A DNA stretch of 64,000 bases, taken from the IMG/VR virus record IMGVR_UViG_3300020182_001907; one strand, written 5' to 3'. This document shows, one piece after another, positions 3,686 through 28,283 of this stretch (positions within the stretch are counted from its first letter, which is position 1; each line of letters opens with the position of its first letter). The position numbers were made by a program, and so were the translations under genes. Source of the DNA: a virus. The notes under the pieces were generated by a model. That model had not been told where the DNA came from and did no database searches. It saw only the letters and a program-made list of their open reading frames with translations.

Positions 3686-4675
3686 TTATTTAACTCCTGC
3701 GTTTAATAACGTAGCAAACTCTGTAGGTTGATCACTAAGTCTCTTTAAATCCCACTTAGCACAAAACTTCATAAAGTGTATGCCTACGTTCTGTACTTTT
3801 TCTTTATTTACTGCCTCAGCAATTACCGCATTGCATGCCTGCTTAACTTCTTCTGGTTGCATGGTTAAATCAATTAATGTACGGTTACGTTCATAGTCAT
3901 CTCGAACACGATGCTCTATATCTTCATGGTCTGTCCAGCGTTGTAGCATAAAGTTATTGTAATTAAAGCCACCAGTGTTTCGATCTGCAAACGCTTCCGA
4001 AATACCAGTTTTATTTTTACTGCCCTTAGTACGTGCGCCTGGGTAAGCAGCAAACACATTGTCTGCACTATCACCACGAACACATTTTTCAAACAGAATC
4101 CATTCAGGATCAGGCAGTACTTTATCTTTACCAGTCTTCTTATCAACTATACGCTTACCACTCTTAGCATCAACAAATCCTTCTAGACTAACAATTGTAT
4201 CCTGTGTGCCGTTATATTGCTTGACATTGGGCGCCATTAGCTGATGGAAATCACTATCTGTACTTACAATAACATGTTGATCATCTGGATGCTTTTGTAT
4301 CCAGGTAGCAATTAGGTCGTCAGCCTCAGCATTACCACACTGGATAACACTAGAGTTTGTCTTTTCAGTAAAGAACTTGATCATGTCATTATAAGCTTCA
4401 AAGAACAATTCGTCATCTTCTTGTTCCCTGACTGATCTTTTAGCTGCTAACACTTTACGATTGGCTTTGTAAGGGGGGTAAAAGTCTTTACGCCATGAAC
4501 GACCTTCTAAACAAAACACAACATGACTGCCGTTAAAATCCTTCCAGGCCTTCTTAATGCTGTTAAACATAATGTGCATTGCCATGCCAATCTTCATGTC
4601 AATGTCCTTACCACCACCCACATGCTTTGCTCTGAAAAACATGTTCAAACTGTCTACTAGGATATATGTTGACAC
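3686..4675 (-). CDS. T4 RNase H-like 5'-3' exonuclease (flap endonuclease family)
   Basis: ILVDSLN, WRKDFYPPYKANR, EADDLIA, STDSDFHQL, RGDSADNV motifs; GGAGG RBS, GTG start. Confidence 0.9.
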   Translation of the reverse strand: MSTYILVDSLNMFFRAKHVGGGKDIDMKIGMAMHIMFNSIKKAWKDFNGSHVVFCLEGRSWRKDFYPPYKANRKVLAAKRSVREQEDDELFFEAYNDMIKFFTEKTNSSVIQCGNAEADDLIATWIQKHPDDQHVIVSTDSDFHQLMAPNVKQYNGTQDTIVSLEGFVDAKSGKRIVDKKTGKDKVLPDPEWILFEKCVRGDSADNVFAAYPGARTKGSKNKTGISEAFADRNTGGFNYNNFMLQRWTDHEDIEHRVRDDYERNRTLIDLTMQPEEVKQACNAVIAEAVNKEKVQNVGIHFMKFCAKWDLKRLSDQPTEFATLLNAGVK

Positions 4676-5530: not shown

Positions 5531-5755
5531 TTAATCTCCGTTTAAAATATCGTCAAAAGGTGATTCTTTTAAACCAACCTCTCTTGCTTTTTCTAAGTCT
5601 TGCTCTAAGTTAATTTTAAGGTAATTTCGGTAATTTGTCAAGATATAATTTACCTCTGCATTAGACATAGTTTTAATATACTCATCTATAACAGGTTGTA
5701 CTGCATTCATTAAGGCAGCCAGTTTAAGTTTACTTTTGGTATCAACGTCTTTCAT
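5531..5755 (-). CDS. Hypothetical protein
   Basis: 74 aa ORF in tight operon. Confidence 0.55.
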   Translation of the reverse strand: MKDVDTKSKLKLAALMNAVQPVIDEYIKTMSNAEVNYILTNYRNYLKINLEQDLEKAREVGLKESPFDDILNGD

Positions 5756-6146
5756 GTGGGTCTACCTGTTGTAATCCGTAATCTTGGTCAGCCCCTGCTT
5801 GCAATAACACACTCCTACAAATACTGTTGAACCATTGATTAACAACATCTTCATCACTCTTGCCAGCCAAGCCGTTTGAAGACAGCATTTTAATAAATTC
5901 ATCGTTCCAATCTAATTCAAAAAAGCCTTGTGTTACATCGTCAGGATTAACACCAACTTCAATAACACTTACCCAAGGTTCCTCTCGCTTTGTTGCGTCT
6001 TCCTTGTCCCATTTGTTATTGATTTTAGTAACTTCTTCAGCTAACTTTTCTTCATCTTTAATTTCGTAATTAGCCTTTGCTAACTCTAGTTCTCTGTCTT
6101 TTTTGCCCCAACTAGTTGGGTGCATTCTAAAAGGTATTCTAGCCAT
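5742..6146 (-). CDS. Hypothetical phage protein
   Basis: 134 aa ORF directly after queE. Confidence 0.6.
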   Translation of the reverse strand: MARIPFRMHPTSWGKKDRELELAKANYEIKDEEKLAEEVTKINNKWDKEDATKREEPWVSVIEVGVNPDDVTQGFFELDWNDEFIKMLSSNGLAGKSDEDVVNQWFNSICRSVLLQAGADQDYGLQQVDPHERR

Positions 6147-6147: not shown

Positions 6148-7071
6148 TTATTTTCCTATTGCGTTTCCGTATATATGAACGTGGGCTCTTGTAGTATAGT
6201 TGTAACCACGTTGTATTGCTTCATCAGCAATGTTTGCTTCTGTTAAAGTAAGTCCTTCAAAGGTACCACCAACGCCCATAATCCAAACAGGAAAATCACA
6301 ACCGGCATCTCTAAATGCTTTAGTGTGTTCTTCCACTTCACGCCATGATTCCTTCGAACCGTTTACCACAAACTTTAACTGCCCGTGAGGACTAACCTGT
6401 ACATACTTACCTACTACTTTTGGCTTAATTGCTTTAGAGTTCTTCTCTCCAGCAGTGTTCCACAGTTTAGGTGAAATACTCCAATACCATTCAGGCGAAC
6501 CTAATGAGTCAGATAGCAATCCACCATAATCGCTTGAGGTATAAAATCTTCCTTGTATCCAACTAGCCATCTCGTCTGTGATATGCTGTGTACCGTTTGT
6601 TTCCACAGTAACGTTCTTGGGTGTGTTGAGCCGTTTATGAAACTCCTGCATAACAGCAATCATGCTCTTTTGGCTTGCTTTAAGCATGGGCTCACCACCT
6701 GTAAACACCATGTGTGTCCATTGCTTTGTTTTAGGATGACAGAACTTTCCATGTGGCAGCAATGCAGTTAGTTCGTCTACACCTTGCTCAACAGTGCGAT
6801 TATTAATCAAGTGTCGATACCGTTTGCTCCAAGTATATGAACTGTCACATCCTTTATCAAATACAGGCAAGTCAAACACACTTGTGATGTTAGTAATATC
6901 TAGTGTTTCATAAGGTAGTTCATATGTACTAGGATCAGTAGGATCAGTTTGTCCAAACCCGTCACACTGCAAGTTGCACAGAAAGAAACGCATCCACAAG
7001 CTGGGTATGCCTGTGTATGCGCCTTCGCCTTGTGCACTAAAAAATGTTTCTGAATATTTAAGTGATTCCAT
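6148..7071 (-). CDS. queE: 7-carboxy-7-deazaguanine synthase (QueE-like radical SAM)
   Basis: ETFFSAQGEG..TGIPSLWMRF..CNLQC...GCDSSY, FTGGEP, VETNGT, SISPK, HVHIYGN. Confidence 0.85.
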   Translation of the reverse strand: MESLKYSETFFSAQGEGAYTGIPSLWMRFFLCNLQCDGFGQTDPTDPSTYELPYETLDITNITSVFDLPVFDKGCDSSYTWSKRYRHLINNRTVEQGVDELTALLPHGKFCHPKTKQWTHMVFTGGEPMLKASQKSMIAVMQEFHKRLNTPKNVTVETNGTQHITDEMASWIQGRFYTSSDYGGLLSDSLGSPEWYWSISPKLWNTAGEKNSKAIKPKVVGKYVQVSPHGQLKFVVNGSKESWREVEEHTKAFRDAGCDFPVWIMGVGGTFEGLTLTEANIADEAIQRGYNYTTRAHVHIYGNAIGK

Positions 7072-7615
7072 TTATTTCTCCGAAATCAAATTTTAGACTG
7101 GATAACAGATATTCTATATCGCTCTGCTCTAACTCGCCATAGCTCTTTACAAAAGCATCATATACGATTTGATGCAACATACTTTCCTTAAAATGGTACT
7201 CATTTATGTATAAATCTTTTAAGATGTCACGTAATATATGGTGTAATCCTACCGCAAACAACCGTTTTAAATCGTCAGTGTTTAAATGTACATTTCCATA
7301 TGCAAGCACCGCTAAAAATACCCATTTACTTAGTCCCAGTGTGTGCAGAGATAGTTCGTTTTTTGCGTTGTGGGTTACTTCTAGTTCAATAAATTCCTTA
7401 TTACTAATTTCTGTTGTGTCAAGATAATAATCTATGCAAGCAAATACTTCTTCGTAAGTAACTGGATACAATCTTTTTGTGCGTACTAAGTTCCTATCTA
7501 CTACTACACTTTCTAATACTGCATCCACCGGTGTAGCAGTGGATTCAATAAGCACTTGATTACTAAATTGTCTCCTACCGAACATTATTACGAATGCCCC
7601 TTCATGCTTAAACAT
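7058..7615 (-). CDS. Hypothetical protein
   Basis: 185 aa ORF between folE and queE; start uncertain. Confidence 0.55.
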   Translation of the reverse strand: MFKHEGAFVIMFGRRQFSNQVLIESTATPVDAVLESVVVDRNLVRTKRLYPVTYEEVFACIDYYLDTTEISNKEFIELEVTHNAKNELSLHTLGLSKWVFLAVLAYGNVHLNTDDLKRLFAVGLHHILRDILKDLYINEYHFKESMLHQIVYDAFVKSYGELEQSDIEYLLSSLKFDFGEINGIT

Positions 7616-8259
7616 ACATCGTAAAACTCTTTCTTTAAACTCTTGTCTGATTGGAATAGGCCATGCATAACAGCAGTTGTCATATCCGATTCATGTTCTT
7701 TGACGCCTCTGTGCGTCATACAATGATGTTCTGCTTTAACTAAAACAGCAACATTAGGCGTCTTTGCATACTCCATTAATGCCTCTGCAATCTGTGTAGT
7801 CATCTCTTCCTGAATCTGTGGCCGCTCTGCAATGTGATGTGCTAGACGATTAAACTTGCTGAGACCAATTACTTCTTCCTCAGGAAAAATACCTACCCAA
7901 CACTTTCCAACGATATTTTGAAAATGGTGTGCACAAGTACTCCTGATACTTATAGGTCCTGTAACATACAAGCTTTTGTAGCCCATGTTAGGAAAACTTG
8001 TTACTCTAGGAACAGGTGCATAACGGCCGCCAAATGTTTCCCTAATAAACATTTTTGCAACACGTTTTGCAGTTTCTTGTGTATTGTGATCGTTATCTGT
8101 GTCAATAACCAGGGCTTCTAGTACACTCTGCATAGCAGTTTGTACTTCTGATTGTAATTGATCTAGTTCACCTTCATAGATAAACTCTGCAATATTGTCA
8201 TTACTGTGGAACCGCTTGCCTGCTTTTCCTATGCGGCTACGAATTTTGTCTGAAATCAT
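7588..8259 (-). CDS. folE: GTP cyclohydrolase I
   Basis: ETAKRVAKM, STCAHHF, IGLSKFNR, RPQIQEEMT, AEHHCMTHRGV. Confidence 0.95.
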   Translation of the reverse strand: MISDKIRSRIGKAGKRFHSNDNIAEFIYEGELDQLQSEVQTAMQSVLEALVIDTDNDHNTQETAKRVAKMFIRETFGGRYAPVPRVTSFPNMGYKSLYVTGPISIRSTCAHHFQNIVGKCWVGIFPEEEVIGLSKFNRLAHHIAERPQIQEEMTTQIAEALMEYAKTPNVAVLVKAEHHCMTHRGVKEHESDMTTAVMHGLFQSDKSLKKEFYDVCLSMKGHS

Positions 8260-8285
8260 ATTAAGAATCCTTTGTAAGTTTTATA

Positions 8286-8314
8286 ATTATACAGCTATTT
8301 AGACAGGAAGTCAA
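8286..8314 (-). promoter_or_regulatory. Sigma70-like promoter upstream of folE
   Basis: TTGACT-N17-TATAAT on the minus strand. Confidence 0.65.
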
Positions 8315-8329
8315 GTATCAAAGGAAAAT

Positions 8330-8830
8330 TTAAGACCACCAATTTTCCCAGGGGAATTCAAACCATTGTGTATCGTCAGATCTACGTATATCCCTACCAG
8401 TGAAATCCACTTCAAATTCAACTTCATGGTTATGAATAGCAGCAGCGTAACTTACATAAGCAAAATGGCCTTCATTATGAATAAACTCTGCTATTTGTTT
8501 GAATGTTTTAGCAGTATCACATATATCATCTACTATTAATACGTCTTGACCTACGAAGTATTTTAATATGTCATTGAGTTTACTGGTTTCTCTAATATAG
8601 CCATCCCGAGTTTGCCATGCAACAGCGTGTGTTGGTACACTAAAATAGTGACTTAGTTTGTTAGAGAAGTCTACACCACCTCGCATAATGCCTACAATAA
8701 CATCTGGTTTATAATTAGCGATTGACATTTGACGAACACATTCTGAATAATATCCGTTCATTTGTTGTTCTGATAATTTTTCTATTACAGGCATTGTAAT
8801 TTTTTCCCAGTGGTACTGCTCTTTTGCCAA
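8330..8830 (-). CDS. Purine phosphoribosyltransferase (xanthine-guanine PRT-like, type I)
   Basis: IVGIMRGG, PRPP-binding VLIVDDICDTAKTF, C-terminal WFEFPWE. Confidence 0.85.
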   Translation of the reverse strand: MAKEQYHWEKITMPVIEKLSEQQMNGYYSECVRQMSIANYKPDVIVGIMRGGVDFSNKLSHYFSVPTHAVAWQTRDGYIRETSKLNDILKYFVGQDVLIVDDICDTAKTFKQIAEFIHNEGHFAYVSYAAAIHNHEVEFEVDFTGRDIRRSDDTQWFEFPWENWWS

Positions 8831-9765
8831 TCATATGCATGACTTACTATATCTTTTAAAGTAAACTGTGGCTGCCAGCCTAGTAATTCTTTTGCTTTAG
8901 TAGTATCTGCATTCGTAGCAGCAATATCTCCAGGCCTAGCCGGGCCTACATCATACTCTATTGCTCTTGCATGTTTTTCTATTACTGCATTCATAACATC
9001 TAATATGCTATAAGAATTACCACAGCCAATATTAAATACATCACTAGTTTCTTGGTCATGTATATAATTTAATGCTGCTAGATGCGCAGTAGCAACATCA
9101 TATACATGTGTGTAATCTCTTTGAGCTGTGCCGTCAGGTGTGTTGTAAGAATTACCATTTACTGTAAATGTTTCTTGTTTTAATGCTGAGATGCATAAGG
9201 CTGGAATTAAGTGACTTGCAGGACTTTGTGTATAACCATGGCTTAAGTCAGGCATCGCACCAGCAGCATTAAAATAACGTAGAATTATATAGTTAAAGTC
9301 ATATGCTTTTCTATAATCCTCCAAAATCGTCTCTATAATGAGTTTTGATCTAGCATAGGGACTTTGCGGGTTACAATCGTGTGTCTCGGGTGTAGGAGTA
9401 GATGCATTGCCATAAACACTACTTGAGCTACTGAAGACAAATTCTTTAACACCAGCATCTACAGCACAATTTAGCAGATTGATAGTATTTGCAACATTGT
9501 TTGCATAGTAAACTGCTGGATCAATAACGCTTCTACCAACTTCATGATCAGCAGCAAGGTGTATAATACTGTCAGGTCGTACTAGTTTTATAATACCTTT
9601 TACTTGATTATTGTCAATATCAAAGGGATATTGTGATACTCCTTCTATTTTTTTCTTTTTTCTATCTAAATTAATAACATTGTGTCCTGCGGATACTAAT
9701 AATTTACATACCACAGTACCAATAAAGCCTGAACCTCCTGTAACTAAGATCGTTTTACTTTCCAT
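8785..9765 (-). CDS. galE: UDP-glucose 4-epimerase
   Basis: LVTGGSGFIG, FSSSSSVYG, SPYARSK, LRYFNAAGA, PDGTAQRDYTHV; start MESK at 9765 with GGAG RBS. Confidence 0.9.
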   Translation of the reverse strand: MESKTILVTGGSGFIGTVVCKLLVSAGHNVINLDRKKKKIEGVSQYPFDIDNNQVKGIIKLVRPDSIIHLAADHEVGRSVIDPAVYYANNVANTINLLNCAVDAGVKEFVFSSSSSVYGNASTPTPETHDCNPQSPYARSKLIIETILEDYRKAYDFNYIILRYFNAAGAMPDLSHGYTQSPASHLIPALCISALKQETFTVNGNSYNTPDGTAQRDYTHVYDVATAHLAALNYIHDQETSDVFNIGCGNSYSILDVMNAVIEKHARAIEYDVGPARPGDIAATNADTTKAKELLGWQPQFTLKDIVSHAYDWQKSSTTGKKLQCL

Positions 9766-10747
9766 GTGTGTGTTCTCCAAACCAAACGTCAAAACAATTA
9801 TTTTTTATTTTATATGACTCTGACCCTGTTGTATTTGTTAAAGCATCGCAAACCATATCAATACTTTCTTCAAACCTATCGAATAAAAATTCTTTAGGAT
9901 ATAATTCTGGATAAACTAATCTGTTGGGCAAAATAACATTGCATCCTAAATATGCAGCTTCAGCCATCCCAAAACCAAAATTTTCTTGTAATGCGTAACT
10001 AACAGCACATTTGCTTTTCGCTACTATATTATAGTAATTATCTTTATCCAAGTTCATTTCTTGTGTTTTAAGGAATTTTACTGGAAAATCTAGCTTTTTC
10101 GATACTTGTCGTGCTAGTTCATCAAACAACCATGGCTGCTTTTCATCGCACAACCTTCCATTAAATATTACAATATTATCTTTTTCTGTTCCTAGATGCA
10201 TGTCTAAGCCTACAAAATCTAAAGGTAGTCCGCTAACAATTAGTTTTTCTGACTGTACCATTCTTTTTTTAAGGATGTCATTTCGAATAAAATTACTGGC
10301 GCAAAAAACTTTGTCGGATATGTCAAAAACCATATCCTCGAAGTTTTTTGCCCAGCGTTCCATATCACGTACAAAGTCTGTATCAGTAAAACTTCCTGCA
10401 TGTACAACACCAGTAATTTTTGCATTTACTTTATGAAAATAATTCATATAGGCAATACTTTCGATCCCAGGGAACCAGATATCACTAAAAAAGAACACAT
10501 CATTGTCGGATACTTCGCCACGCTCATACATACTGGCAATTTCTGCCATCTGTAAACTTTTAAATTTAGAAGTAAATGCAGCATTTAAAAAACAACCTTC
10601 AGGTAATCCCGCAGGCTCTCCTGCAGCAGGATATACTCGTACAAATGGAACATTATTGACATTCAAATAATTAAGTATGTCTCTGTCCATATGAACTGTG
10701 TATCTGCCTTCAATATGCTCTAACGGAACATATATAATCTTACCCAT
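9755..10747 (-). CDS. GT-B fold glycosyltransferase
   Basis: IFNGRLCDEKQP, QENFGFGMAEA (Ex7E), PNRLVYPE; likely start MGKIIY at 10747. Confidence 0.8.
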   Translation of the reverse strand: MGKIIYVPLEHIEGRYTVHMDRDILNYLNVNNVPFVRVYPAAGEPAGLPEGCFLNAAFTSKFKSLQMAEIASMYERGEVSDNDVFFFSDIWFPGIESIAYMNYFHKVNAKITGVVHAGSFTDTDFVRDMERWAKNFEDMVFDISDKVFCASNFIRNDILKKRMVQSEKLIVSGLPLDFVGLDMHLGTEKDNIVIFNGRLCDEKQPWLFDELARQVSKKLDFPVKFLKTQEMNLDKDNYYNIVAKSKCAVSYALQENFGFGMAEAAYLGCNVILPNRLVYPELYPKEFLFDRFEESIDMVCDALTNTTGSESYKIKNNCFDVWFGEHTHGK

Positions 10748-10811
10748 ATTAGGTTTCCTTATAAATTGATGACGTATTTTTCTTTTTTGTAATAATCTGC
10801 CAGCACCCATT

Positions 10812-10991
10812 TTACATTGCGTTCTTTTTGTCCTGGATTTCTGCACGACGAGCTTTTGCAAGTTTTGCAAGTTCTCCCAAAGCCTTACGAGCTCTTGCCG
10901 CAGATGCTTTTACGCCTTTGGTTTCAAACTTCTCGCTTTCTGCGAGATACTCTTCCATTTGTGCTTTAATTTGTAAATGTACTTCTGTCAT
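10812..10991 (-). CDS. Small basic Hc1/histone-H1-like DNA-binding protein (59 aa)
   Basis: Below ORF-track cutoff: MTEVHLQIKAQMEEYLAESEKFETKGVKASAARARKALGELAKLAKARRAEIQDKKNAM; AAGGAG RBS. Confidence 0.7.
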   Translation of the reverse strand: MTEVHLQIKAQMEEYLAESEKFETKGVKASAARARKALGELAKLAKARRAEIQDKKNAM

Positions 10992-11002
10992 TTCTTTCTC
11001 CT

Positions 11003-12088
11003 TTAGTTTGTTTCATACCCTACAGCATAATTGTAATCTACGTAATCCTTCTTACATTTTAGATTACATTCCACCCAGGGCGAACTCTTCCAACTGTTAA
11101 ATAGTTTCTTCCAATGTTCATGATTAAGAACATCTTGCATAGAACTTGTTTTGACACTAAGTTGATCTCTATACATATAAAAGAAACTGTCAGTATAATT
11201 TATTGTTTTATCACCGTCACTCATAGCAATATAGGGAAAACTAGTCCAGGAACAGGGATGTAGTGCACCATCAGCGCTCAAATACATACCTCTGTTTCCC
11301 ACCATGCATAACGGCAAAATATTACCTTGTGGTTTTGCATTTTCATATTTAAAATGGTTAGTTTGCATATAGTTTTCTATAGGCTGTGTCCTGTTGCTAA
11401 TTTTTTTAATGCTTCTTTCGTATCTGTTAGTGCTACTAACAAATTCTGAATCTGGTTCTAAAGGATCGTATTCTCCGTACGATCCGTACTTGCTAGAAAA
11501 CTTTGTGCTTTTAGTCCATTGTACACTATCACAGCCATTTTGTAAAGCCTTATTTTGTATGTCGTAAATATGATCCTGATTAAATTTAAAATATATTGCT
11601 GCCCATACTGTAAATGCATCACTTTCTAATCCTATTATACGCATACCTTCCATTATGCTGTCCCACTCACTGTTTACCCGATATAGTATGTTACTGTCGT
11701 GATCGTAGCCATCTACACTAAAGTTTACAGTATCATAGTTGTTTAATAACCCTGCTAGCTCACGCCACCATTCTGGCTTTTTATAACTGCCGTTAGTGAT
11801 AATGAATATGTGACACGTAGGTTTAAGATTTTTTATATAGCGTACAATGTCTAGCATGTCCTTGCAGTATATAGGATCGCCGATATCTCCGCAAAATGTA
11901 AAACGTTGTACGTGTTCCAGTATAAAATCTTCTGTAAATGCGTTTTTAAACTCCTCAAAAGACCATTCTTTGTTTGTCCAGGAAGTGGCAGGCAATTCAG
12001 TTCTGGGGCACCTAGGACATTTTAGTGTGCACTTAGCACTTAACTCTATGTGCCAATGATATAATTGCCAGCCGTAATTATTAATCAC
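11003..12088 (-). CDS. Radical SAM protein
   Basis: CTLKCPRC, FCGDIGDP, ITNGS, FSVDG, C-terminal Cys cluster. Confidence 0.85.
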   Translation of the reverse strand: MINNYGWQLYHWHIELSAKCTLKCPRCPRTELPATSWTNKEWSFEEFKNAFTEDFILEHVQRFTFCGDIGDPIYCKDMLDIVRYIKNLKPTCHIFIITNGSYKKPEWWRELAGLLNNYDTVNFSVDGYDHDSNILYRVNSEWDSIMEGMRIIGLESDAFTVWAAIYFKFNQDHIYDIQNKALQNGCDSVQWTKSTKFSSKYGSYGEYDPLEPDSEFVSSTNRYERSIKKISNRTQPIENYMQTNHFKYENAKPQGNILPLCMVGNRGMYLSADGALHPCSWTSFPYIAMSDGDKTINYTDSFFYMYRDQLSVKTSSMQDVLNHEHWKKLFNSWKSSPWVECNLKCKKDYVDYNYAVGYETN

Positions 12089-12681
12089 GGCGCTAACCTT
12101 AAAAACTTATCTGCAGAAAATATAAAGTGATATATTTCTTCCGCAACATCTTCAGGCAAAAGGTGTTGATTATCATATAAATTATCAATAGATTTGTGGT
12201 TAGGCTTATGTCTATTATTATTAAAGTTTGTTTTAGTAAGGCCTAACCGAACTTCCTTAACTGTAACACTAGGATGCTCTTGGGAAAGCATATTACCAAA
12301 GTCTTCTAATGCTTTTTTAGATAGACTATATACTAAATCACCAGGCCAAAACTTATCATTGTTTGTGCTTGTGATGTTAACAATTATTACTTCTGAGTTT
12401 TTTCTAATTGCTAACTGACTTAGAGTCATAGGACTTACTAGATTAGCAGAGATAATTTTTTGCCAATCTAAAGTGTTATGCGAACTAAACGGAACTTTAC
12501 CACCCAAGTCGTGACCAGCACAGTTTATTAGCATGTCCACAAATGGCAGGCTTTCTATTCTGTCAGGGTAGTCTAAATCACATGCATTACGTGTTAGTTC
12601 AAACACATTATGTGTGGCTTTTAACAATGTGCTCAGGCACTTTCCTACCCCACTTGATGTTCCGGTAATTGCAACTTCCAT
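12085..12681 (-). CDS. Short-chain dehydrogenase/reductase
   Basis: AITGTSSGVG, INCAG, YSLSK (YxxxK); start MEVAIT at 12681. Confidence 0.85.
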   Translation of the reverse strand: MEVAITGTSSGVGKCLSTLLKATHNVFELTRNACDLDYPDRIESLPFVDMLINCAGHDLGGKVPFSSHNTLDWQKIISANLVSPMTLSQLAIRKNSEVIIVNITSTNNDKFWPGDLVYSLSKKALEDFGNMLSQEHPSVTVKEVRLGLTKTNFNNNRHKPNHKSIDNLYDNQHLLPEDVAEEIYHFIFSADKFLRLAP

Positions 12682-12683
12682 GT

Positions 12684-13091
12684 TTATCCTTGACGCACCT
12701 TCATTGTAAGGTCGCCATAAATATTCTCGCAACCGTTTTCATTGTCTTCGGCTACGGATATTTTTAACCAGCGATTGGGATATTTTGCTTGTATCTCTAA
12801 TGCCAAGTCATCTGCAATCATTTCACAACTCTTGTGATCCAATTGTAGTACACATGTACTGCTTTCTACTTCAGCGTACAATCTTTCTAACCAGCGTTTG
12901 AACTGGATAAATTCAATGTCTCTGTCGTCATGGAACACTTCGATCCATACTTTAAAGTGAAACATGTGTCTATGCGGAAAACCCAGGAAGCTAACATCGT
13001 CCCATTCACCTGTAGCAAGTTTAGGGTCTGTATCTGCACCTGGATACATGTGTACGCCTTCCTTCTGAAAGGTTACCCAAATAGTTCTCAT
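12684..13091 (-). CDS. QueD-paralogous T-fold protein, probably DpdL-type (CDG decarboxylase)
   Basis: EGVH...LGFPHRHMF...SCEMIA...VAEDNENG; HRH replaces QueD CxxxHGH; lies in a folE/queE/dpdA cluster. Confidence 0.65.
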   Translation of the reverse strand: MRTIWVTFQKEGVHMYPGADTDPKLATGEWDDVSFLGFPHRHMFHFKVWIEVFHDDRDIEFIQFKRWLERLYAEVESSTCVLQLDHKSCEMIADDLALEIQAKYPNRWLKISVAEDNENGCENIYGDLTMKVRQG

Positions 13092-13495
13092 TATAATGTC
13101 TCCACAAATTCTGCTAAGTCTTTAATGTCTGCATCACTTAACAAACTAGCCTGACTCCACATCATCGCAGATTGTCTGCCAACCTTCTCACGATTCTTGT
13201 ACGCAACAAGTCGCTCACTAATGTATGCAGCAGTTTGTCCTGCAAGTTTAGGACCAACACCACCTTCGCCTTTGCCACCGTGGCATGCAGCACAGCCAGC
13301 ATACTTCTTTTCACCTGGCAATTTTGGCTGTTCTTTCTTAACTGGAGCACCACCTGCTATAGCCACGGTTGGACTAAACAGTTGGTATTCAACAGTCTTT
13401 GGTTCTTCTTTTGGTGGTGTTACTCTTGTGCCAAACACTTTGTTAGGATCACAAGCTGTGATCAATAAGCATAAACTTACTAATAAAACTCTCAT
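13091..13495 (-). CDS. Cytochrome c (c553/c4-like) lipoprotein
   Basis: Lipobox LITAC, heme motif CAACH, GPKLAGQ, distal Met (AMM), LSDADIKDLAEFV. Confidence 0.9.
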   Translation of the reverse strand: MRVLLVSLCLLITACDPNKVFGTRVTPPKEEPKTVEYQLFSPTVAIAGGAPVKKEQPKLPGEKKYAGCAACHGGKGEGGVGPKLAGQTAAYISERLVAYKNREKVGRQSAMMWSQASLLSDADIKDLAEFVETL

Positions 13496-13638
13496 GTATT
13501 GTCCCCATCTCTATATTTTACGTTGTTCTTGTCAAAACCTTTTTTCTCATCATGTTCGACCATAAAGGGGTATGCAATACCGCATATGCCTACTAGCAAA
13601 AACCAAGCAGCCCCTAATAGTGTCATGATAGTATCCAT
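13492..13638 (-). CDS. Small membrane protein
   Basis: Start MDTIM at 13638 (TAATG overlap); single hydrophobic helix. Confidence 0.5.
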   Translation of the reverse strand: MDTIMTLLGAAWFLLVGICGIAYPFMVEHDEKKGFDKNNVKYRDGDNT

Positions 13639-13925
13639 TAGTCTTCGCCTTCCCGAAGATTTAACTCCTTTAAGTATTCGCCGCCATCCAATGTAGTGCT
13701 GTGAAAGCTCTCCCATCTTTTAACCACAATTCTTAACCCTCGGCAGATACCAGTTGAACCCACATTTTTAAATGCAAACGCTTCTATTGCCTGCATCTCT
13801 TCACGATTACATTGAGTAAAAGATTTACCATAAAAACTTCTGATAAAGTTTTCACATAAATTACTTAGATATACATCTAACTCTCTTTCTACAACTGAAA
13901 AATTTTCTATAACAAACTTATTCAT
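13638..13925 (-). CDS. Hypothetical protein
   Basis: 95 aa ORF coupled to its neighbours. Confidence 0.55.
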   Translation of the reverse strand: MNKFVIENFSVVERELDVYLSNLCENFIRSFYGKSFTQCNREEMQAIEAFAFKNVGSTGICRGLRIVVKRWESFHSTTLDGGEYLKELNLREGED

Positions 13926-14032
13926 TTATTCAACGCATCTTTTAGTTGCTCTAGAATCACAAGTATGCGCTCAAGCTGTTTCTTGTCTGATACATTATCA
14001 GTGTCAACTTCAAATTCTACTTTAACTTTCAT
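13922..14032 (-). CDS. Micro-ORF (36 aa)
   Basis: MKVKVEFEVDTDNVSDKKQLERILVILEQLKDALNK; fills the gap, ATGA overlap with the next gene. Confidence 0.5.
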   Translation of the reverse strand: MKVKVEFEVDTDNVSDKKQLERILVILEQLKDALNK

Positions 14033-14342
14033 CAGCTTCCTTTACAAACACGCCATCTACCATACGACCTTTGCGATCCTTAATATCATTATACGCTACT
14101 TCTAGACATTCTGTCAAGCTCAGTTTGTTACGTTCAGCGATATTAATTAGTACGACCATCATGTCACCGATATCGTCCCGGATGTCTTTGCCTTTGCAAA
14201 TGTTATCCGATAGCTCACCTGCTTCCTGAATAAGTTTAGCAAACTGTGTCTTATCATCTGAACCTTTAATAAGGTTCCTATCGTGATGCCATTGCTTGAT
14301 ATTTTCTACCCAAGCAAGAATAGTTGTATCTTCCATTGCCAT
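14022..14342 (-). CDS. MazG-like NTP pyrophosphohydrolase
   Basis: QFAKLIQEAGEL...DDIGDMMVVL...AYNDIKDRKG. Confidence 0.8.
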   Translation of the reverse strand: MAMEDTTILAWVENIKQWHHDRNLIKGSDDKTQFAKLIQEAGELSDNICKGKDIRDDIGDMMVVLINIAERNKLSLTECLEVAYNDIKDRKGRMVDGVFVKEADES

Positions 14343-15871
14343 TATATTTCTCCTAAAATATCTTCAAAGTTTGCATATTCCTCTGGTTTTGTCTCTTCCG
14401 ACTCTTCAAAAAAGTCAACACTTAGAGATGATTCCTGGTCTAGATCACCAAAACTTATTTCTTCCAAAAACGGCTTGTACTCTTTTAGCATTTCATAAGG
14501 ATTTTTACAGTCAGGATGCAACACTTCTTTTACAAAACTATCAAAATACACTACACTGTAAGGTACATATGGAGAGAACTCATTTGTTCCTTTGTTCTTT
14601 TTGTCTCTAATCCAGTCTTTGTATGTCAAATCAGTTCTGTATTTTTCCACATCAGCAAGACGATTTGCTTCCTGTACTGCAAATATATGGTTGTAAACAC
14701 TGTGCGCCATATAATACAAATAACTCTGCGTATCCCAGCTGGTGCTTCCTGCTTTTTTAGGTTTGCCGTTTCGATCCAGGTCACCTTCAGCCATAGCACA
14801 AATATCACCAGTAGTAAGTCTACTCATAATAGGAGATGCAGCAAATGGCATCGGCAAATCGCTGCCCTTCAAGCCCTGTTGATCAATAGCCCTATCCATA
14901 AAGTAACTAAACTTTTTAGGAGAAAAGAAATTATACGAGTATGTTGTCCCGTATGCTGTGTTCACAAAAGGGCTAGCAGCATCAAAACTTACTATAACAT
15001 CTTTGCTATAGTGTTCGCGGATAGTTCGTTGGATGCTTGTTAAATAACAACCCCAGTTCAACCTACCTGTTCCCAAAAAGTGAATCCAACCTTTGTTCTG
15101 TAGCAACCCATCGTCTTTAAGATTAAGTAATCTTTTGAGCGCCAAATACATGTTACTCTTGTTATTGCCAGCAAAAGCAAAGCCTTCAAGTGCAAGTTCA
15201 GCATCTCCGTAGTTTTCTTCCACCCAAGCAGGATCTGAAAATTGTTTAACGCCTTCATACCAGATATCAGATGTTGCTTCATCATTTCCACTAAGGATAT
15301 TCATAAATTTTGTTGCGCCAAGCACACGGTTTTTTAAAAAGTAATCAATATTTAAACAAGTAATATCAACACAAGTTTGGAAGTCCTTAAGTCCTGTTCG
15401 TTCGTTCAACGGAGGGATCGCTGCTACACTGGGAACATCAAGTATCATACTCCAATCTGTAGTATATTCTAACCATCGCAGCACTTTTTCGCAAAGTGCA
15501 AGTCTAGCAGGATCATTAGGATCTGTTACTGTTTCCCAGTCCATTTTAATAACGCCAGTTGCTACTTGGAACCCACCACTATCTCCTAGCACTACAGTTT
15601 TATTTCGGTTACGTCCCTGTACCATAGGTTCCTGAGAATCTGTTTTTTTCAAATCCAGTTGTGCATGTCCTGCACTATACAGAGTGTAAGGATAATGATA
15701 GTAACTATCCACTTCTTTCAAAAAGTCCATCCCTTCATGACCATGTTCTAAACCAACTGGAATTCTTGGTGCTTCTTCTTTAGATAACTTATCAAGTTGT
15801 TTTACATAGAAACTACTAAGTGCTGGTAAGTATACTGCATAGTCTCTTTGAGTTTTTCCTAAATCAAACAT
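14342..15871 (-). CDS. dpdA: TGT-fold 7-deazaguanine transglycosylase (DpdA-like)
   Basis: TGT catalytic motif GDSGGFQ, MILD, IHFLG, SFDAASP; no CxCxxC zinc site of tRNA TGTs; clustered with folE/queE and replication genes. Confidence 0.75.
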   Translation of the reverse strand: MFDLGKTQRDYAVYLPALSSFYVKQLDKLSKEEAPRIPVGLEHGHEGMDFLKEVDSYYHYPYTLYSAGHAQLDLKKTDSQEPMVQGRNRNKTVVLGDSGGFQVATGVIKMDWETVTDPNDPARLALCEKVLRWLEYTTDWSMILDVPSVAAIPPLNERTGLKDFQTCVDITCLNIDYFLKNRVLGATKFMNILSGNDEATSDIWYEGVKQFSDPAWVEENYGDAELALEGFAFAGNNKSNMYLALKRLLNLKDDGLLQNKGWIHFLGTGRLNWGCYLTSIQRTIREHYSKDVIVSFDAASPFVNTAYGTTYSYNFFSPKKFSYFMDRAIDQQGLKGSDLPMPFAASPIMSRLTTGDICAMAEGDLDRNGKPKKAGSTSWDTQSYLYYMAHSVYNHIFAVQEANRLADVEKYRTDLTYKDWIRDKKNKGTNEFSPYVPYSVVYFDSFVKEVLHPDCKNPYEMLKEYKPFLEEISFGDLDQESSLSVDFFEESEETKPEEYANFEDILGEI

Positions 15872-15876
15872 ATTTC

Positions 15877-16632
15877 TTAACCCTTAGCTGGAAGTAAGTA
15901 TGTGTATTCACCAATACCACTGCTAACTTTAATTTGTAAAAGTCCTTTAGTATTAATACTCATAACAATACCAGCGCTGTCACCCAAACGTAAAATTTTC
16001 AATACTACGTCCAAAGGCCATTTAAACTCATGAGTGATTTGACCGTTTGGTGCATCATTAATTAAAATTTTTGTCCTATCACCACCAGCATCACCAATAT
16101 AAAAATATAACTTTCCATCTTCTGTACGAGGGGAGAAAGTGCTTTCAAAAGCACTTAACACGCCGTTGAAATATGCTAAGTCTTTTAAGTTTTTTTGACT
16201 AGGTACAATACTTAGATCGAAATCTGCTCCTTTAAACTTAATTTCTTTTAATTGTGCATTAACAACATCAGCAAGCATAAATCTGTAATGTGCATCTGTA
16301 CCATTCTCGTCAACAAACGCAACTTCAGTTGGAACATCCACACCATTTCGTGACTGTTTAATAACTTGAACAGTCGCTACATCAGAGTCAAAGCCTGGAT
16401 ATTTTAAGTAACCGTCTAGTACATTCATACGACTTAAACCAACAGTGCTATCAACAAAATCAGCAACAGGATTTACCATAGACCCTTTAAAAATAACAGT
16501 CTTGTCTGCATCTACTGTTTCTACTTCTGTACTAGAACCAGTACCTGAAATTTTAACCATTTCAAAAATACCCAAGCTGTGGGTGTGTTTAAGTACGTCT
16601 TTCAGTACATCCTTAATCGCATTTTCTGCCAT
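15877..16632 (-). CDS. Probable DNA polymerase sliding clamp
   Basis: 251 aa alpha/beta protein of gp45/PCNA size, C-terminal strand YTYLLP, next to polB; inferred mostly from context. Confidence 0.55.
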   Translation of the reverse strand: MAENAIKDVLKDVLKHTHSLGIFEMVKISGTGSSTEVETVDADKTVIFKGSMVNPVADFVDSTVGLSRMNVLDGYLKYPGFDSDVATVQVIKQSRNGVDVPTEVAFVDENGTDAHYRFMLADVVNAQLKEIKFKGADFDLSIVPSQKNLKDLAYFNGVLSAFESTFSPRTEDGKLYFYIGDAGGDRTKILINDAPNGQITHEFKWPLDVVLKILRLGDSAGIVMSINTKGLLQIKVSSGIGEYTYLLPAKG

Positions 16633-16656
16633 GTGTGTTCTCCTGTGTAATTGTAT

Positions 16657-16914
16657 TTAGACAGTCTGTTCTGTCTGTTTTTGTTTTTTTCGTTCATTGT
16701 TTAGAAAATATAACCTTATATGATATTTTCTAACTACTGCAAAAACTGTAAAGATACATATAAGTGTCGTGCTTGTTGCAACTGGTCCAAATTCTAGTAT
16801 AGTAAGGCATACCCATACTATTATATAGTTTAACGGTATGTTAAAGGAACCAGCAATAAGCGTATCTATAGCCGCTTCTTTTAATGCTCTAGCTTTATCA
16901 CTTTTTGTAATCAT
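16657..16914 (-). CDS. Small membrane protein
   Basis: Two hydrophobic segments; ATG 5 nt after a TATAAT box. Confidence 0.55.
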   Translation of the reverse strand: MITKSDKARALKEAAIDTLIAGSFNIPLNYIIVWVCLTILEFGPVATSTTLICIFTVFAVVRKYHIRLYFLNNERKKQKQTEQTV

Positions 16915-16919
16915 ACTGT

Positions 16920-16948
16920 ATTATACTAGAAATCGAAGAATGTGTCAA
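16920..16948 (-). promoter_or_regulatory. Sigma70-like promoter overlapping the polB 3' end
   Basis: TTGACA-N17-TATAAT. Confidence 0.6.
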
Positions 16949-19613
16949 GTGCTTCTGAGTCCTTAATACGGGTAAGATCCCATCCCATAGCACCTAACAC
17001 GTTATTAATCTTCTTGTTAAGCACACTTTCCTCCATCAAGTCGTCATCAAAGGGTAACTCTTTGAACCATTGCGGCAACTGTAGTTCATCTGTAGGGTAT
17101 GCAACGTTTGTGTATCCCATTGCATTATTTTTAAGTCTACAAACAATAACTTTCATACCATCTGTTACTTGCATGCTGTATTGATCGCCATTCATTTTTT
17201 TAAGAATGTTCCAATGTATACTTGCAGTTACATGACCTGGCATCATGTTGTTTACGGGTTTGCCATCAATTAGGGGTTTACGTTTTTTAGCAAACGGATC
17301 CTCACCGCCTAAACCTTTGAGCTTGTTATACTTAACCGTGTATGGTGTTAAGTTGTTAACTCGTTTAGGCATACCTTTTTCCCAAGGATTAAGCCCTTGA
17401 AAATATGTTTTAAACTTTTTAATCTTTGCTATAACTTCTGTTTCTGGAACACCTTCTAGTGCGTTGTCTAATATTTCTTCTAGAAAGTCTTGAATAAATT
17501 CAGGGGTATCTGAACGTTTGATATCCATGCCCATGATTTTTAGTTTACCACCCTCGGGCTGGTATCCTTCAATATCCAAACACTTGATTGCATAACGCTT
17601 CTTGGTAATGAACAATCCTGATCTACCAACTACCTCCCTGCCTGCCTTCATTACTTGTCCAGCACTAATTGGTACGTTAAACTGTTTGTTCAACATATCA
17701 GGGAAAGTGTCACTTACTTGATCTGAAATAGTATCATACAGTTTAATAGCACTTTCCATGTCCAGCTCAGTGCCCTCTGGCAATACATTTGCTGCTGTAA
17801 AATATACGCTATCAGTATCTCCGTATATTATAGTCTCGCCACTATAGTCGTAGATTCCTGTGAGCAGTCTATTTGTTTCTGCTGCCATATGTTTTGTAAT
17901 GGCTCTGCCTGTAAGTGTGGTGCTCTGGCCAATACGTTTATCGAAAAAACGACACCCAGCATTAAGAATAGCGCCATATAATGAGTTAAGGTTAATTTTT
18001 TTAACCAACTGTCTTTTGTCCCAGAACGCAATATCAGCCGCAGTTGTTGCTGCTTTTTTCTTTGCTTGTAGTTCCTTCCTTTCTGCATACCACCTCTCTA
18101 ATAAGCCAGGAATGATTCCCTGAAAGTCCGTTTTAAATATAGTGCCATTTGCTGATATATTCCAAGGCTGCTCACCATTAAAAATTAAGTTATATATGTC
18201 AGCACCAGTCACTTCATGAGTGCTACCATCATCCATATCTAAATGCATGATATGATCAACGTCCTTACTTATCATAAATTCGTATTCACTAGTAGTAAAC
18301 TTTCCTACCCAAGCATCTGCAAACGACCTTTTTTCTAAAGACATCCTGTTATTAATTTCTTCATCTGTATAAGTTGGTCTAAGTTGACCCACAATAGTTT
18401 CCGGTCCCATATTGAGTGCACGAATTACACTAGGGTATAGACTGTTCAAGTCCATGCTGCCAATCCATTCATGGAATCCTTTCTTGGGAAAGGCAACAAA
18501 TGCACCTGCTGCTTTACCGTCCTTTTCTTCTCTGTGTCGATCAGGAACAACATACCCACGTCTGTGCGCTTCGTTAATAATTGCTTGTTCTGTGGTTGCA
18601 ACAGCACCCATTGTGGTTGGTAGTAACACGGTGTTATCGTGTGCAATTGTATTTGCTAAATCAATAAACTGGAGCTTCTTGTCTAGTTTGTCTAGTAACA
18701 TAACGTCCTGAATATTGTATTCTAAAAACAGTTTAAAGTCATGATTATATAATCTATCTAAACTGCCTTCGTATGCAACCTTCTTCTCACCAACTTCCAT
18801 CTCTCCAATGAAGTCCAACCTATAACTGTGTCGTTCTTCGTAGTTGTACTTCTGGTACAGTTGCATATAGTCTAAGTGAATGCGCCCTATTAAATCATAT
18901 GTCTGTGATTCCTTACCGTAACGTTCAAACACTCTTTCTTTTGGACGTTGATCCCACAAACACAATTTTCTAGTCTCTGCTTTGCCCAATACTTTTATAA
19001 TACGATTAGTAGTGTACGGTATATCATAACCTTCCGAATTCCAACCGCTTAATACATCAGCATCATCAATCACCATTAAAAACTTTTGCAACATTTCCTT
19101 TTCCGTTTCACACAACATGACTTCGGGCATGTCAGAGACAATTGATTCTGCTTGCTTCCAGCTTAGTGTTTTGGGAGGAACAGCCAAACAAATCATAGCG
19201 TCCATCCATTGCAGGTAGACGCCTATGCTTGTTATTTCCATAAATGCTTCTTCAGGTGAACTATATCCTCTCTCAGGATCAAAGTCTACCTCGATGTCAA
19301 AAAATGCTGTTTGGAGTACAGGTTGATCAGCACCTGAATAGTGCTTTGCAATAGTTTTGTTAACAGGTTTAATGTCGCTTTCAAACATCTTATTATGTCT
19401 GTTAAAGGCAACATTCTTTCGGAAGTCCTTGAGATTTTTACATCTTATCTCAGCTACGGGATCACCGTAAATACTGCGATGGCTACCACGAGGATCTGAA
19501 ACATAAAAGTTGTATTCAGGCCTGTGGTCCACTAATATACGCTTACCATCAACACGTTCTACGACTCGAACGAGGTCTTTGTGTTTGTCGTAGAATGCAT
19601 CTACGTATGACAT
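16926..19613 (-). CDS. Family B DNA polymerase
   Basis: Exonuclease FFDIEVD, GWNSEGYDIPY, YNIQD; polymerase DLNSLYPS, KINLNSLYG, YGDTDS, KKRY. Confidence 0.97.
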   Translation of the reverse strand: MSYVDAFYDKHKDLVRVVERVDGKRILVDHRPEYNFYVSDPRGSHRSIYGDPVAEIRCKNLKDFRKNVAFNRHNKMFESDIKPVNKTIAKHYSGADQPVLQTAFFDIEVDFDPERGYSSPEEAFMEITSIGVYLQWMDAMICLAVPPKTLSWKQAESIVSDMPEVMLCETEKEMLQKFLMVIDDADVLSGWNSEGYDIPYTTNRIIKVLGKAETRKLCLWDQRPKERVFERYGKESQTYDLIGRIHLDYMQLYQKYNYEERHSYRLDFIGEMEVGEKKVAYEGSLDRLYNHDFKLFLEYNIQDVMLLDKLDKKLQFIDLANTIAHDNTVLLPTTMGAVATTEQAIINEAHRRGYVVPDRHREEKDGKAAGAFVAFPKKGFHEWIGSMDLNSLYPSVIRALNMGPETIVGQLRPTYTDEEINNRMSLEKRSFADAWVGKFTTSEYEFMISKDVDHIMHLDMDDGSTHEVTGADIYNLIFNGEQPWNISANGTIFKTDFQGIIPGLLERWYAERKELQAKKKAATTAADIAFWDKRQLVKKINLNSLYGAILNAGCRFFDKRIGQSTTLTGRAITKHMAAETNRLLTGIYDYSGETIIYGDTDSVYFTAANVLPEGTELDMESAIKLYDTISDQVSDTFPDMLNKQFNVPISAGQVMKAGREVVGRSGLFITKKRYAIKCLDIEGYQPEGGKLKIMGMDIKRSDTPEFIQDFLEEILDNALEGVPETEVIAKIKKFKTYFQGLNPWEKGMPKRVNNLTPYTVKYNKLKGLGGEDPFAKKRKPLIDGKPVNNMMPGHVTASIHWNILKKMNGDQYSMQVTDGMKVIVCRLKNNAMGYTNVAYPTDELQLPQWFKELPFDDDLMEESVLNKKINNVLGAMGWDLTRIKDSEALDTFFDF

Positions 19614-19630
19614 GTGTGTACTCCTAAAGA

Positions 19631-19689
19631 TTGGGTCGGGGAGATGCGTCTCCCCAGTTTATGCCGTCATGCGCTCAGGAGGCACCCAA
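19631..19689 (-). promoter_or_regulatory. Structured 5' leader of the DNA polymerase gene
   Basis: GC-rich stems TTGGGT/ACCCAA and GGGGAGA-CGCA-TCTCCCC directly upstream of the AGGAG RBS. Confidence 0.55.
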
Positions 19690-19696
19690 AAGGGTT

Positions 19697-19960
19697 TTAT
19701 AATGTACGACCAACAGTTTCTAGAATAGTTTCTAGTTCGTCATACTTGTCTTGTTCGTCAGTCCATGCTGCTTTGTGTGCAATGTTGATTGCTTTGTTAA
19801 GTACAGCAGGCTTGAGGTCCATTTCTTCTGCAATTGCTTTAACAGTGTCACGTAAGCCTTCAGATAAGATATCTACCTCTGCTTTAACTTGGCAGCCTTC
19901 ATCAATTAGTTTCTTAAGTCGTGCTTGTTCTTCGCCGTTAAATGTTCTATTAAAAGCCAT
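19697..19960 (-). CDS. Phage dsDNA-binding protein (T4 DsbA/GapR-like)
   Basis: 87 aa helical protein LKKLIDEG...LRDTVKAIAEEMDLKPAVLNKAINIAHK. Confidence 0.6.
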   Translation of the reverse strand: MAFNRTFNGEEQARLKKLIDEGCQVKAEVDILSEGLRDTVKAIAEEMDLKPAVLNKAINIAHKAAWTDEQDKYDELETILETVGRTL

Positions 19961-19974
19961 ATTTGTATTCCTTC

Positions 19975-20178
19975 TTATGTGCGTGTGTTTATATTGATAT
20001 TGTTAATTATAGCAGGATTTGTTGTGTTGTCAACTGAAACATCTAGATAATAGCTAATTTTAAATGCGGGCATCTGATCAAAACTTATTTGTTCCAATAT
20101 GTTACGATCAGTAATACGATTACCTTGCGGATCATACGCTACAAATTCATTACCTGTGCGATGAACTTCTATTCTCAT
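19975..20178 (-). CDS. Hypothetical protein
   Basis: 67 aa ORF; also contains a TTGACA-N16-TATAAT promoter (20006-20033) for the downstream gene. Confidence 0.5.
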   Translation of the reverse strand: MRIEVHRTGNEFVAYDPQGNRITDRNILEQISFDQMPAFKISYYLDVSVDNTTNPAIINNININTRT

Positions 20179-28164: not shown

Positions 28165-28240
28165 TGGTGCCGCCACCAAGAGTCGAACTCGGGACCTACT
28201 GATTACAAATCAGTTGCTCTACCAACTGAGCTATAGCGGC
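28165..28240 (-). tRNA. tRNA-Thr(UGU)
   Basis: Loop TTTGTAA, full cloverleaf, CCA. Confidence 0.93.
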
Positions 28241-28283
28241 ATATGTCTATTTAACCCTTTATGCTCCAGCAAACCAAAATTAA

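Follow-up and report, generated by a model that had tools for sequence, protein, structure and literature searches.

The 64,000-nucleotide stretch of DNA analysed here, from the viral record IMGVR_UViG_3300020182_001907 of IMG/VR, is referred to as the window; this 64-kb window represents only part of a genome, is phage-like with a G+C content of ~37%, and carries nearly all of its genes on the minus strand. A megablast comparison of the region with 50,697 phage records returned no near-identical DNA. Positions 6148 to 19613 are occupied by a run of genes, all on the minus strand, in which a family B DNA polymerase (polB) is followed by a protein of the TGT fold, enzymes of 7-deazaguanine synthesis, and a glycosyltransferase with the epimerase GalE, suggesting a 7-deazaguanine DNA modification module of the DpdL type to which the glycosyltransferase may add a further step. 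An earlier reading of the DNA letters alone (the original prediction) had proposed a new guanine hypermodification system at this location, and the co-oriented run on which it was built is real. The genes are given below in order of transcription, together with two genes downstream of the run; a small DUF7220 protein is encoded between polB and the clamp candidate, and two small open reading frames (ORFs) lie between the genes for MazG and cytochrome c.

16926..19613, minus strand: family B DNA polymerase (Pfam DNA_pol_B, 7e-36; exonuclease domain, 5e-17)
15877..16632, minus strand: sliding-clamp candidate, 251 aa (phrog_12062, 5e-44; PCNA_N and gp45-slide_C on ESM Atlas neighbour clusters, leads only)
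14342..15871, minus strand: long TGT-fold, putative DpdA3-like transglycosylase, 509 aa (AlphaFold2 model and Foldseek, invariant Asp residues, hhalign)
14022..14342, minus strand: MazG-like pyrophosphatase (phrog_715, phrog_1992)
13091..13495, minus strand: cytochrome c lipoprotein (Pfam Cytochrom_C, 1e-11; lipobox ...LITAC; CAACH haem motif)
12684..13091, minus strand: DpdL by sequence comparison, a QueD-paralogous T-fold protein, 135 aa (hhalign and phmmer to phiST CGPG_00067; LxxxHRHxF signature)
12085..12681, minus strand: short-chain dehydrogenase (SDR) (Pfam adh_short, 3e-19; TGxxxGxG and YxxxK motifs)
11003..12088, minus strand: radical SAM enzyme (Pfam Radical_SAM, 9e-10; C-terminal SPASM, 0.008, under cut-off; CxxxCxxC motif)
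9755..10747, minus strand: GT4-like retaining GT-B glycosyltransferase, as modelled (homolog alignment; PglH profile match, 2.5e-4; EX7E motif; structure model)
8785..9792, minus strand: UDP-glucose 4-epimerase GalE (TIGR01179, 321.3 bits with a cut-off of 262.3; Pfam Epimerase, 2.5e-58)
8330..8830, minus strand: type I 6-oxopurine phosphoribosyltransferase (PRTase), Gpt/HGPRT-like (Pfam Pribosyltran, 1e-17; HGPRTase, 1.5e-11; start codon uncertain)
7588..8259, minus strand: GTP cyclohydrolase I, FolE (Pfam, 2e-46; NCBIfam FolE models, 1e-49 yet under their cut-offs)
7058..7615, minus strand: 185-aa ORF between FolE and QueE (19-31% identity in marine relatives, weak conservation)
6148..7071, minus strand: QueE-like radical SAM enzyme, putative 7-carboxy-7-deazaguanine (CDG) synthase (phrog_2076 'QueE-like', 4e-48; N-terminal QGEG motif and cysteines)
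5742..6146, minus strand: conserved downstream neighbour (tblastn, 40% identity to PA5oct gp160; synteny)
3686..4675, minus strand: 5′-3′ exonuclease / flap endonuclease, a conserved gene of the replication module and the last of the syntenic block (NCBIfam matches to the Pol I N-terminal region and to Xni, 1e-15 to 1e-17)

The identities first proposed for polB, MazG, the SDR, the radical SAM enzyme, the GT-B glycosyltransferase, GalE, the PRTase, FolE and the QueE-like protein are borne out by family matches and motifs, while the cytochrome c gene (13091-13495) and the conserved 185-aa ORF had been overlooked. The QueE-like protein matches NCBIfam QueE equivalogs at 1e-9 with 22-38 bits, the cut-offs being 200-300. 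The PRTase reaches 64 bits with Pfam Pribosyltran (cut-off 26) and falls below the NCBIfam equivalog cut-offs; its phosphoribosyl pyrophosphate (PRPP) loop, VDDxxD(T/S), is invariant (D101, D102, D105, T109). For the SDR, the likely start is Met18, followed by a TGTSSGVG motif. As first reported, no QueC, QueF, Gat-QueC or canonical QueD is encoded within the 64-kb window. The 185-aa ORF was considered as a hidden QueD and dropped, having no Pfam, PHROG or NCBIfam match and no usable ESM Atlas match. Among the larger ORFs scanned in the window, no thymidylate-synthase-like hydroxymethylase or TET-type enzyme was found that could provide another handle for base modification.

The 135-aa product described in the original prediction only as a T-fold HRH protein does belong to the T-fold and, by sequence comparison, is DpdL, a putative CDG decarboxylase. 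It aligns with CGPG_00067 of Cellulophaga phage phiST in hhalign with 98.5% probability (E = 2e-15; phmmer, 2e-11), and has no match to the QueD of the same phage (probability 0.1%). In phiST, DpdL is the proposed CDG decarboxylase, although its activity was not reconstituted in E. coli, and 2′-deoxy-7-deazaguanine (dDG) fully replaces deoxyguanosine (PMC10516641). DpdL carries the signature LxxxHRHxF at the position where QueD has CxxxHGH, and lacks the catalytic Cys of PTPS and QueD (PMC10516641). The signature is present in the window as L36-G-F-P-H40-R-H42-M-F44; residues L36, H40, H42 and F44 are invariant in nine DpdL proteins, taken from phages that have the glycosyltransferase and from phages that lack it, and the central R is F in two of the nine. 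The putative active-site residues H14, H40, H42, H54, E60, S88-C89-E90 and E115 are likewise invariant in both groups. The expectation of a 7-deazaguanine system that has no QueC and ends at CDG or 7-deazaguanine (DG) is upheld by these assignments. The presence of DpdL, however, places the core pathway inside the characterised set of products, with dDG as in phiST (PMC10516641), rather than outside it as had been suggested.

The 509-aa protein with the GDSGGFQ motif was modelled with AlphaFold2 from a 45-sequence alignment at a predicted local distance difference test score (pLDDT) of 90.5, and the best 50 Foldseek matches listed were all of the TGT family (bacterial or human TGT and one archaeosine TGT), with E values of about 1e-6. 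VIA-align Z scores were 18.3 with ArcTGT, 17.5 with QTRT2, 16.8 with TGT, 16.0 with DpdA and 15.0 with Cap10, and did not exceed 11.4 with other TIM barrels. The TGT/DpdA fold anticipated for this protein is confirmed by the model. With the catalytic Asp residues numbered as in Z. mobilis TGT (Asp102, Asp156, Asp280), D97 within DSGGFQ and D145 align with Asp102 and Asp156 in a profile comparison with PDB TGT sequences whose E value is only 0.5; D297, which follows HxLGxG within an S(F/Y)D motif both here and in the protein of ACP17, corresponds to Asp280 by motif position, and all three residues are invariant in the 45 homologs. Using hhalign, the protein matches the DpdA-like gp123 of Acidovorax phage ACP17 with 96% probability (E = 4e-9) and that of Synechococcus phage BUCT-ZZ01 with 92%, while its profile found nothing in Campylobacter phage CP220. 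Since it is related to the ACP17 and BUCT-ZZ01 proteins and only weakly related to the short DpdA3 of phiST, it is described here as long DpdA3-like, with no strict subfamily membership asserted. It is proposed to be the enzyme that places a deazaguanine base into DNA. Metagenomic relatives of this protein form more than 2,400 clusters at 90% identity, some from Tara ocean samples and on contigs of up to 293 kb, and at the 50%-identity level 779 clusters match.

The position of this gene within the replication module, also part of the original prediction, bears on whether its product acts on DNA. In the related loci it comes after polB and the clamp candidate without exception, and Vibrio phage 2.275.O, whose pathway is of the QueC/QueF type, has the same arrangement. 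The clamp candidate itself is invariably encoded between polB and the TGT-like gene; its profile has no sequence match in the PDB, and the assignment is a lead only, drawn from ESM Atlas neighbours of the PCNA_N and gp45 families. The window polB ends in ...ALDTFFDF, a tail of the T4-like clamp-binding type. In relatives, the C-terminal peptide of the TGT-like protein copies the tail of polB, and the common peptide varies by lineage: the two C-termini read ...DLF(D/G)W in 2.275.O and ...LDEFFEF in locus L016, and in locus L028 polB ends in ...SLFDFDD with a matching ...SLFE... about 25 residues before the end of the TGT-like protein. When tested by shuffling, the observed score was reached in 0 of 500 cases for L002 and L016 and in 5 of 500 for L028. 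The likeness is counted as support from the relatives only and not from the window. The polB-like clamp tail in relatives, together with the retained invariant Asp residues, points to action on DNA, and a clamp-type tail on the inserting enzyme of these relatives would explain how the subfamily replaces G completely after replication. As a side observation, the co-varying C-terminal peptides (L002, L016, L028 and also L001; window region 14342-14440) fit a common clamp-binding motif. The marine DpdL proteins of L028, L035 and L049 have an acidic C-terminal extension ending in ...DVF(D/E/N)(S/N)L(L)K that is not found on the window DpdL and may be another docking peptide.

Related loci number ~40 in IMG/VR and fall into two marine clades, with TGT-like proteins of 58-79% identity. 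The recurring order is polB, clamp candidate, TGT-like protein, a variable stretch, DpdL, glycosyltransferase, GalE, PRTase, FolE, QueE and flap endonuclease, and the recurrence of this core order in ~40 viral loci and in Pseudomonas phage PA5oct indicates that the arrangement is not due to chance. The glycosyltransferase and PRTase, which had been expected near dpdA in relatives along with GalE, accompany the core in cultured phages (PA5oct, ACP17, BUCT-ZZ01, Phosso and others) as well as in both marine clades, whereas conservation of GalE is limited to the marine clades. None of the ~40 related loci has MazG, cytochrome c, the SDR, the radical SAM enzyme or the two small ORFs. On this ground MazG, which had been counted as a pathway member, was rejected, as were the SDR, the radical SAM enzyme and cytochrome c. 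Together, the genes for the SDR and the radical SAM enzyme make up a mobile cassette of two genes that is also found between gp33 and gp59 in T4-like marine phages without nearby deazaguanine genes, often after a distinct NAD-dependent epimerase/dehydratase (L052-L064, L073), and the radical SAM family of the cassette has 1820 homologs. The cytochrome c gene is inserted between the TGT-like gene and dpdL.

Glycosyltransferase homologs of at least 26% identity were found in 18 phage records from seven lineages, and in all 18 DpdL is encoded within ~3 kb. A tie to the TGT-like gene instead of DpdL was considered and rejected, as the gene that follows the TGT-like gene in Vibrio phage 2.275.O is not homologous. 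Weak matches in Xanthomonas PhiXhv-type phages lie in a BshA-, BshB- and GlmS-like context and represent a different family. Conversely, DpdL occurs without the glycosyltransferase in phiST-type phages, RHph_I1_18, Ahp1 and D479. Among the 50,697 phage records, PRTase homologs are confined to DpdL phages, including BUCT-ZZ01, phiST and PA5oct (gp163), with the exception of one Salmonella genome record annotated as hypoxanthine PRTase. Since it accompanies DpdL both with and without the glycosyltransferase, the PRTase is a general member of DpdL systems; its presence in phiST, where plain dDG is proven, means that it provides no evidence for a product beyond dDG, the role in which it had originally been cast. 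The candidate extension that remains is the glycosyltransferase with GalE: the glycosyltransferase alone marks a distinct variant, accompanied by GalE in the marine clades. In phiST the PRTase homolog (28218-28646) lies two genes from ribonucleotide reductase, a nucleotide-metabolism setting.

The glycosyltransferase probably begins at Met42 of its long ORF. The separate 'Hc1-like' gene of the original prediction is not real, being a basic 41-residue 5′ extension of this ORF that is present in no homolog. The protein has the conserved motifs ENFGFGMAE (EX7E) and EKQP, scores 18.4 bits with Pfam Glycos_transf_1 (cut-off 26.4), and was modelled at a pLDDT of 75, with BshA (Z 17.5) and MshA (Z 17.2) as the nearest structures. 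The model is that of a GT4 retaining GT-B enzyme, the acceptor of which cannot be read off the fold. With this enzyme tied to the core, a sugar-bearing deazaguanine is possible as the final base.

Several known systems resemble this module in part. The dDG system of phiST consists of FolE, QueD, QueE, DpdL, DpdA3 and a MazG-like protein (Cui, Hutinet et al., NAR 2023, PMC10516641). It shares with the window a QueC-less pathway beside the DNA polymerase, a DpdL with the LxxxHRHxF signature, a TGT-fold inserting enzyme and a homologous PRTase in the genome. It differs in the length of the inserting enzyme, a distant relation of 259 aa as opposed to 509 aa, in having a QueD where none is seen in the window, and in having neither the GT4 glycosyltransferase nor GalE, both of which are embedded in the window cluster; the two MazG proteins are not homologous by phmmer. 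Another counterpart is found in PA5oct, a Pseudomonas jumbo phage (Wroclawvirus), in which gp162 to gp168 lie behind polB and a clamp candidate and include the TGT-like gp168 (47% identity), glycosyltransferase gp167 (31%), DpdL gp166 (61%), PRTase gp163 (28%) and QueE gp162 (33%). In contrast to the window, FolE and two QueD genes are located 55 kb away and the cluster lacks GalE; the region at 169206-171971 holds the two QueD-like PTPS genes (gp230, gp226) beside FolE, in addition to the DpdL gp166. In 2021 PA5oct was predicted to encode a deazaguanine system (PMC7824862), and the resistance of its DNA to several restriction enzymes shows a pattern suggestive of modified G (PMC12191111); no publication was found that identifies the PA5oct base chemically or discusses the glycosyltransferase.

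Compact clusters are found in ACP17, with DpdA-like gp123, glycosyltransferase gp124, DpdL gp125 and QueE gp126, and in BUCT-ZZ01, with QueE, XGPRT, QueD, FolE, a DpdA-like protein, DpdL and the glycosyltransferase. Both clusters combine QueD, FolE, a DpdA-like protein, the glycosyltransferase, DpdL and QueE, and BUCT-ZZ01 also has an annotated xanthine-guanine PRTase; unlike the window, these phages are T4-like with genomes of ~156 kb, have DpdA-like proteins of 416-424 aa and QueD within the cluster, and lack GalE. Phosso encodes polB, clamp, DpdL, glycosyltransferase, FolE and QueE. The glucosylation of hydroxymethylcytosine in T4 by alpha- and beta-glucosyltransferases follows a similar sugar-coating logic, in which a GT-B enzyme is encoded with a base-modification pathway, however T4 glucosylates a hydroxymethyl group on a pyrimidine and no such handle is evident on DG. 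In the tubercidin and toyocamycin pathways of Streptomyces (TubE, ToyH), FolE/QueD/QueE chemistry is followed by the action of a PRTase on a 7-deazapurine base; the products are free nucleoside antibiotics.

The reading favoured here, to which an even chance is given, is that the window encodes a DpdL-type 7-deazaguanine DNA modification module among the replication genes of a marine jumbo phage resembling PA5oct, with the glycosyltransferase adding a further step. From the family and fold assignments, the aligned conserved catalytic residues and the gene linkage we infer each of the enzymatic steps, DNA as the target, the part played by the PRTase and, most of all, what the glycosyltransferase modifies. 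FolE would convert GTP into dihydroneopterin triphosphate, a QueD from elsewhere in the ~250-370 kb genome or from the host would produce 6-carboxytetrahydropterin (CPH4), the QueE-like radical SAM enzyme would form CDG, and DpdL would decarboxylate CDG to DG. The long DpdA3-like enzyme of the TGT fold, whose gene comes directly after those of polB and the clamp, would exchange G for the deazaguanine in new DNA, and the Gpt-like PRTase would return the released guanine through GMP to GTP for FolE. The GT4 glycosyltransferase, using UDP-hexose supplied by GalE, would perform the DpdL-linked extra step, most likely the addition of a hexose to the deazaguanine base or its DNA form. In its most specific form, in which DpdL clusters with the glycosyltransferase produce DNA containing a 7-deazaguanine that bears a sugar (dDG + 162 Da), DpdL would free the electron-rich C7 of the pyrrole ring, to which the GT4 enzyme adds a hexose (UDP-Gal or UDP-Glc via GalE) before or after clamp-tethered insertion; this is a speculative proposal that is considerably easier to doubt than to defend.

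A number of observations weigh against the favoured reading, and several of them point to a simpler outcome, in which plain dDG is made as in phiST, the PRTase salvages guanine, and the glycosyltransferase and GalE act on a virion protein, an envelope glycan or a metabolite, encoded nearby for co-expression. Roughly half of the DpdL phage lineages lack the glycosyltransferase, including phiST, which has DpdL, the PRTase and proven dDG without it (PMC10516641), and the active-site residues of DpdL are identical in the two groups. DG has no obvious hydroxyl to take a sugar. The fold of the glycosyltransferase is nearest to small-molecule GT4 enzymes such as BshA and MshA, and T4 AGT and BGT were not among the best 50 matches of two structural searches, made with a model of pLDDT only 75. 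The window also contains a gene of the UDP-glucose/GDP-mannose dehydrogenase family (62399-63211, minus strand) and a CmcI-like sugar O-methyltransferase gene (50008-50619, minus strand), so that glycan work unrelated to DNA is possible. Against plain dDG stands the glycosyltransferase within ~3 kb of DpdL in seven unrelated lineages of differing hosts and genome types, with no phage record lacking DpdL having it at 26% identity or more and weaker matches being BshA-like in another context; plain dDG is a serious possibility, though improbable on balance. Other contrary points concern the inserting enzyme and the pathway itself. The 509-aa protein has no Pfam (including the TGT model PF01702), PHROG or NCBIfam match at E <= 0.01, its 45-sequence alignment has no invariant or near-invariant Cys to form the TGT zinc site CxCxxC...H, and its hhalign match to phiST DpdA3 (CGPG_00065) is weak, with 66% probability (E = 5.7e-5) over only 83 columns. 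Its resemblance to polB within the window, an internal DFFEE compared with the terminal TFFDF, is also weak, as 378 of 500 shuffles reach the score. Neither the window nor any of eight related fragments (47-92 kb) was found to hold QueD; these fragments are 12-25% complete by CheckV, and the absence of QueD from them therefore says nothing about the whole genome.

Other explanations assign the same genes differently. In a pre-replicative route, the PRTase would join DG or CDG to PRPP in the manner of TubE and ToyH, kinases and ribonucleotide reductase would yield the deoxynucleoside triphosphate, MazG-type enzymes would remove dGTP and polB would incorporate the product, leaving the TGT-like protein to act on nucleotides or to proofread. 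This route is unlikely, even though phage PRTase homologs are confined to DpdL systems, the phiST homolog lies close to ribonucleotide reductase, MazG is adjacent in both the window and the phiST cluster, and DpdA3-type systems replace G completely (PMC10516641), since MazG is not kept in relatives, the TGT-like protein keeps the Asp residues aligned with those of base exchange and has a polB-like clamp tail in relatives, and guanine salvage accounts for the same PRTase association. The Asp of the PRPP loop is also retained, which fits a guanine substrate; in Gpt this residue presumably contacts N7. A glycosylated pterin, made by FolE, the PTPS-like T-fold protein, the SDR, the GT4 enzyme and GalE as an auxiliary metabolite and not as a DNA base, would draw on an enzyme set that is formally complete in the window. 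Cyanobacteria make biopterin glucoside, and the glycosyltransferase has tetrahydrobiopterin glucosyltransferases among its structural matches (Z 15.1-15.8), however these match no better than dozens of other GT4 enzymes. With DpdL lacking the catalytic Cys of PTPS and QueD (PMC10516641), the SDR a non-conserved insert, and QueE and the TGT-like protein conserved with the set yet without a role in it, a pterin glycoside is very improbable. Least likely of all is that the TGT-fold protein places deazaguanine only into host or phage tRNA and leaves DNA unmodified. Its best structural matches are indeed tRNA enzymes, but DpdA itself is matched at Z 16.0, the place behind polB and the clamp is kept across distant phages, relatives have the polB-like tail, and PA5oct DNA resists restriction at G-containing sites.

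What is known in this module is a dDG core of the DpdL type; what sets it apart is a glycosyltransferase, with GalE, tied to that core, and the final base may be one that is undescribed. Among the purine modifications known to camouflage phage DNA against restriction and CRISPR, 7-deazaguanines are the main ones; eight derivatives have been described, none of them known to bear a sugar. A hexosylated base, if true, would be the first glycosylated purine in any genome. The strict linkage of the glycosyltransferase to DpdL in seven phage lineages suggests either a missing step or a missing product, and the enzyme may account for the failure of dpdL together with dpdA alone to yield dDG in E. coli. 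Marine viral metagenomes are rich in this cluster, and cultured phages, among them the therapy candidate PA5oct, have it too.

Outside the cluster, a FabF-like beta-ketoacyl-ACP synthase II gene (20187-21353, minus strand) is located ~570 bp upstream of polB, and between them lie two small ORFs on the minus strand and, on the plus strand, a non-conserved ORF of 127 aa (19614-19997). Another radical SAM protein, of 313 aa and unrelated to QueE, is encoded at 1697-2638 (minus strand), and a ClpB/ClpA-like double AAA+ ATPase adjoins a DnaJ homolog at 42696-45700 (minus strand). PhoH and a nitroreductase-family gene (57156-58682, plus strand) make up one of the few plus-strand islands of the window. 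A SusC-like TonB-dependent outer-membrane receptor of 1084 aa (CarboxypepD_reg and beta-barrel) is encoded at 45777-49031 (minus strand), and the presence of such a receptor on a phage hints at a Bacteroidota host.

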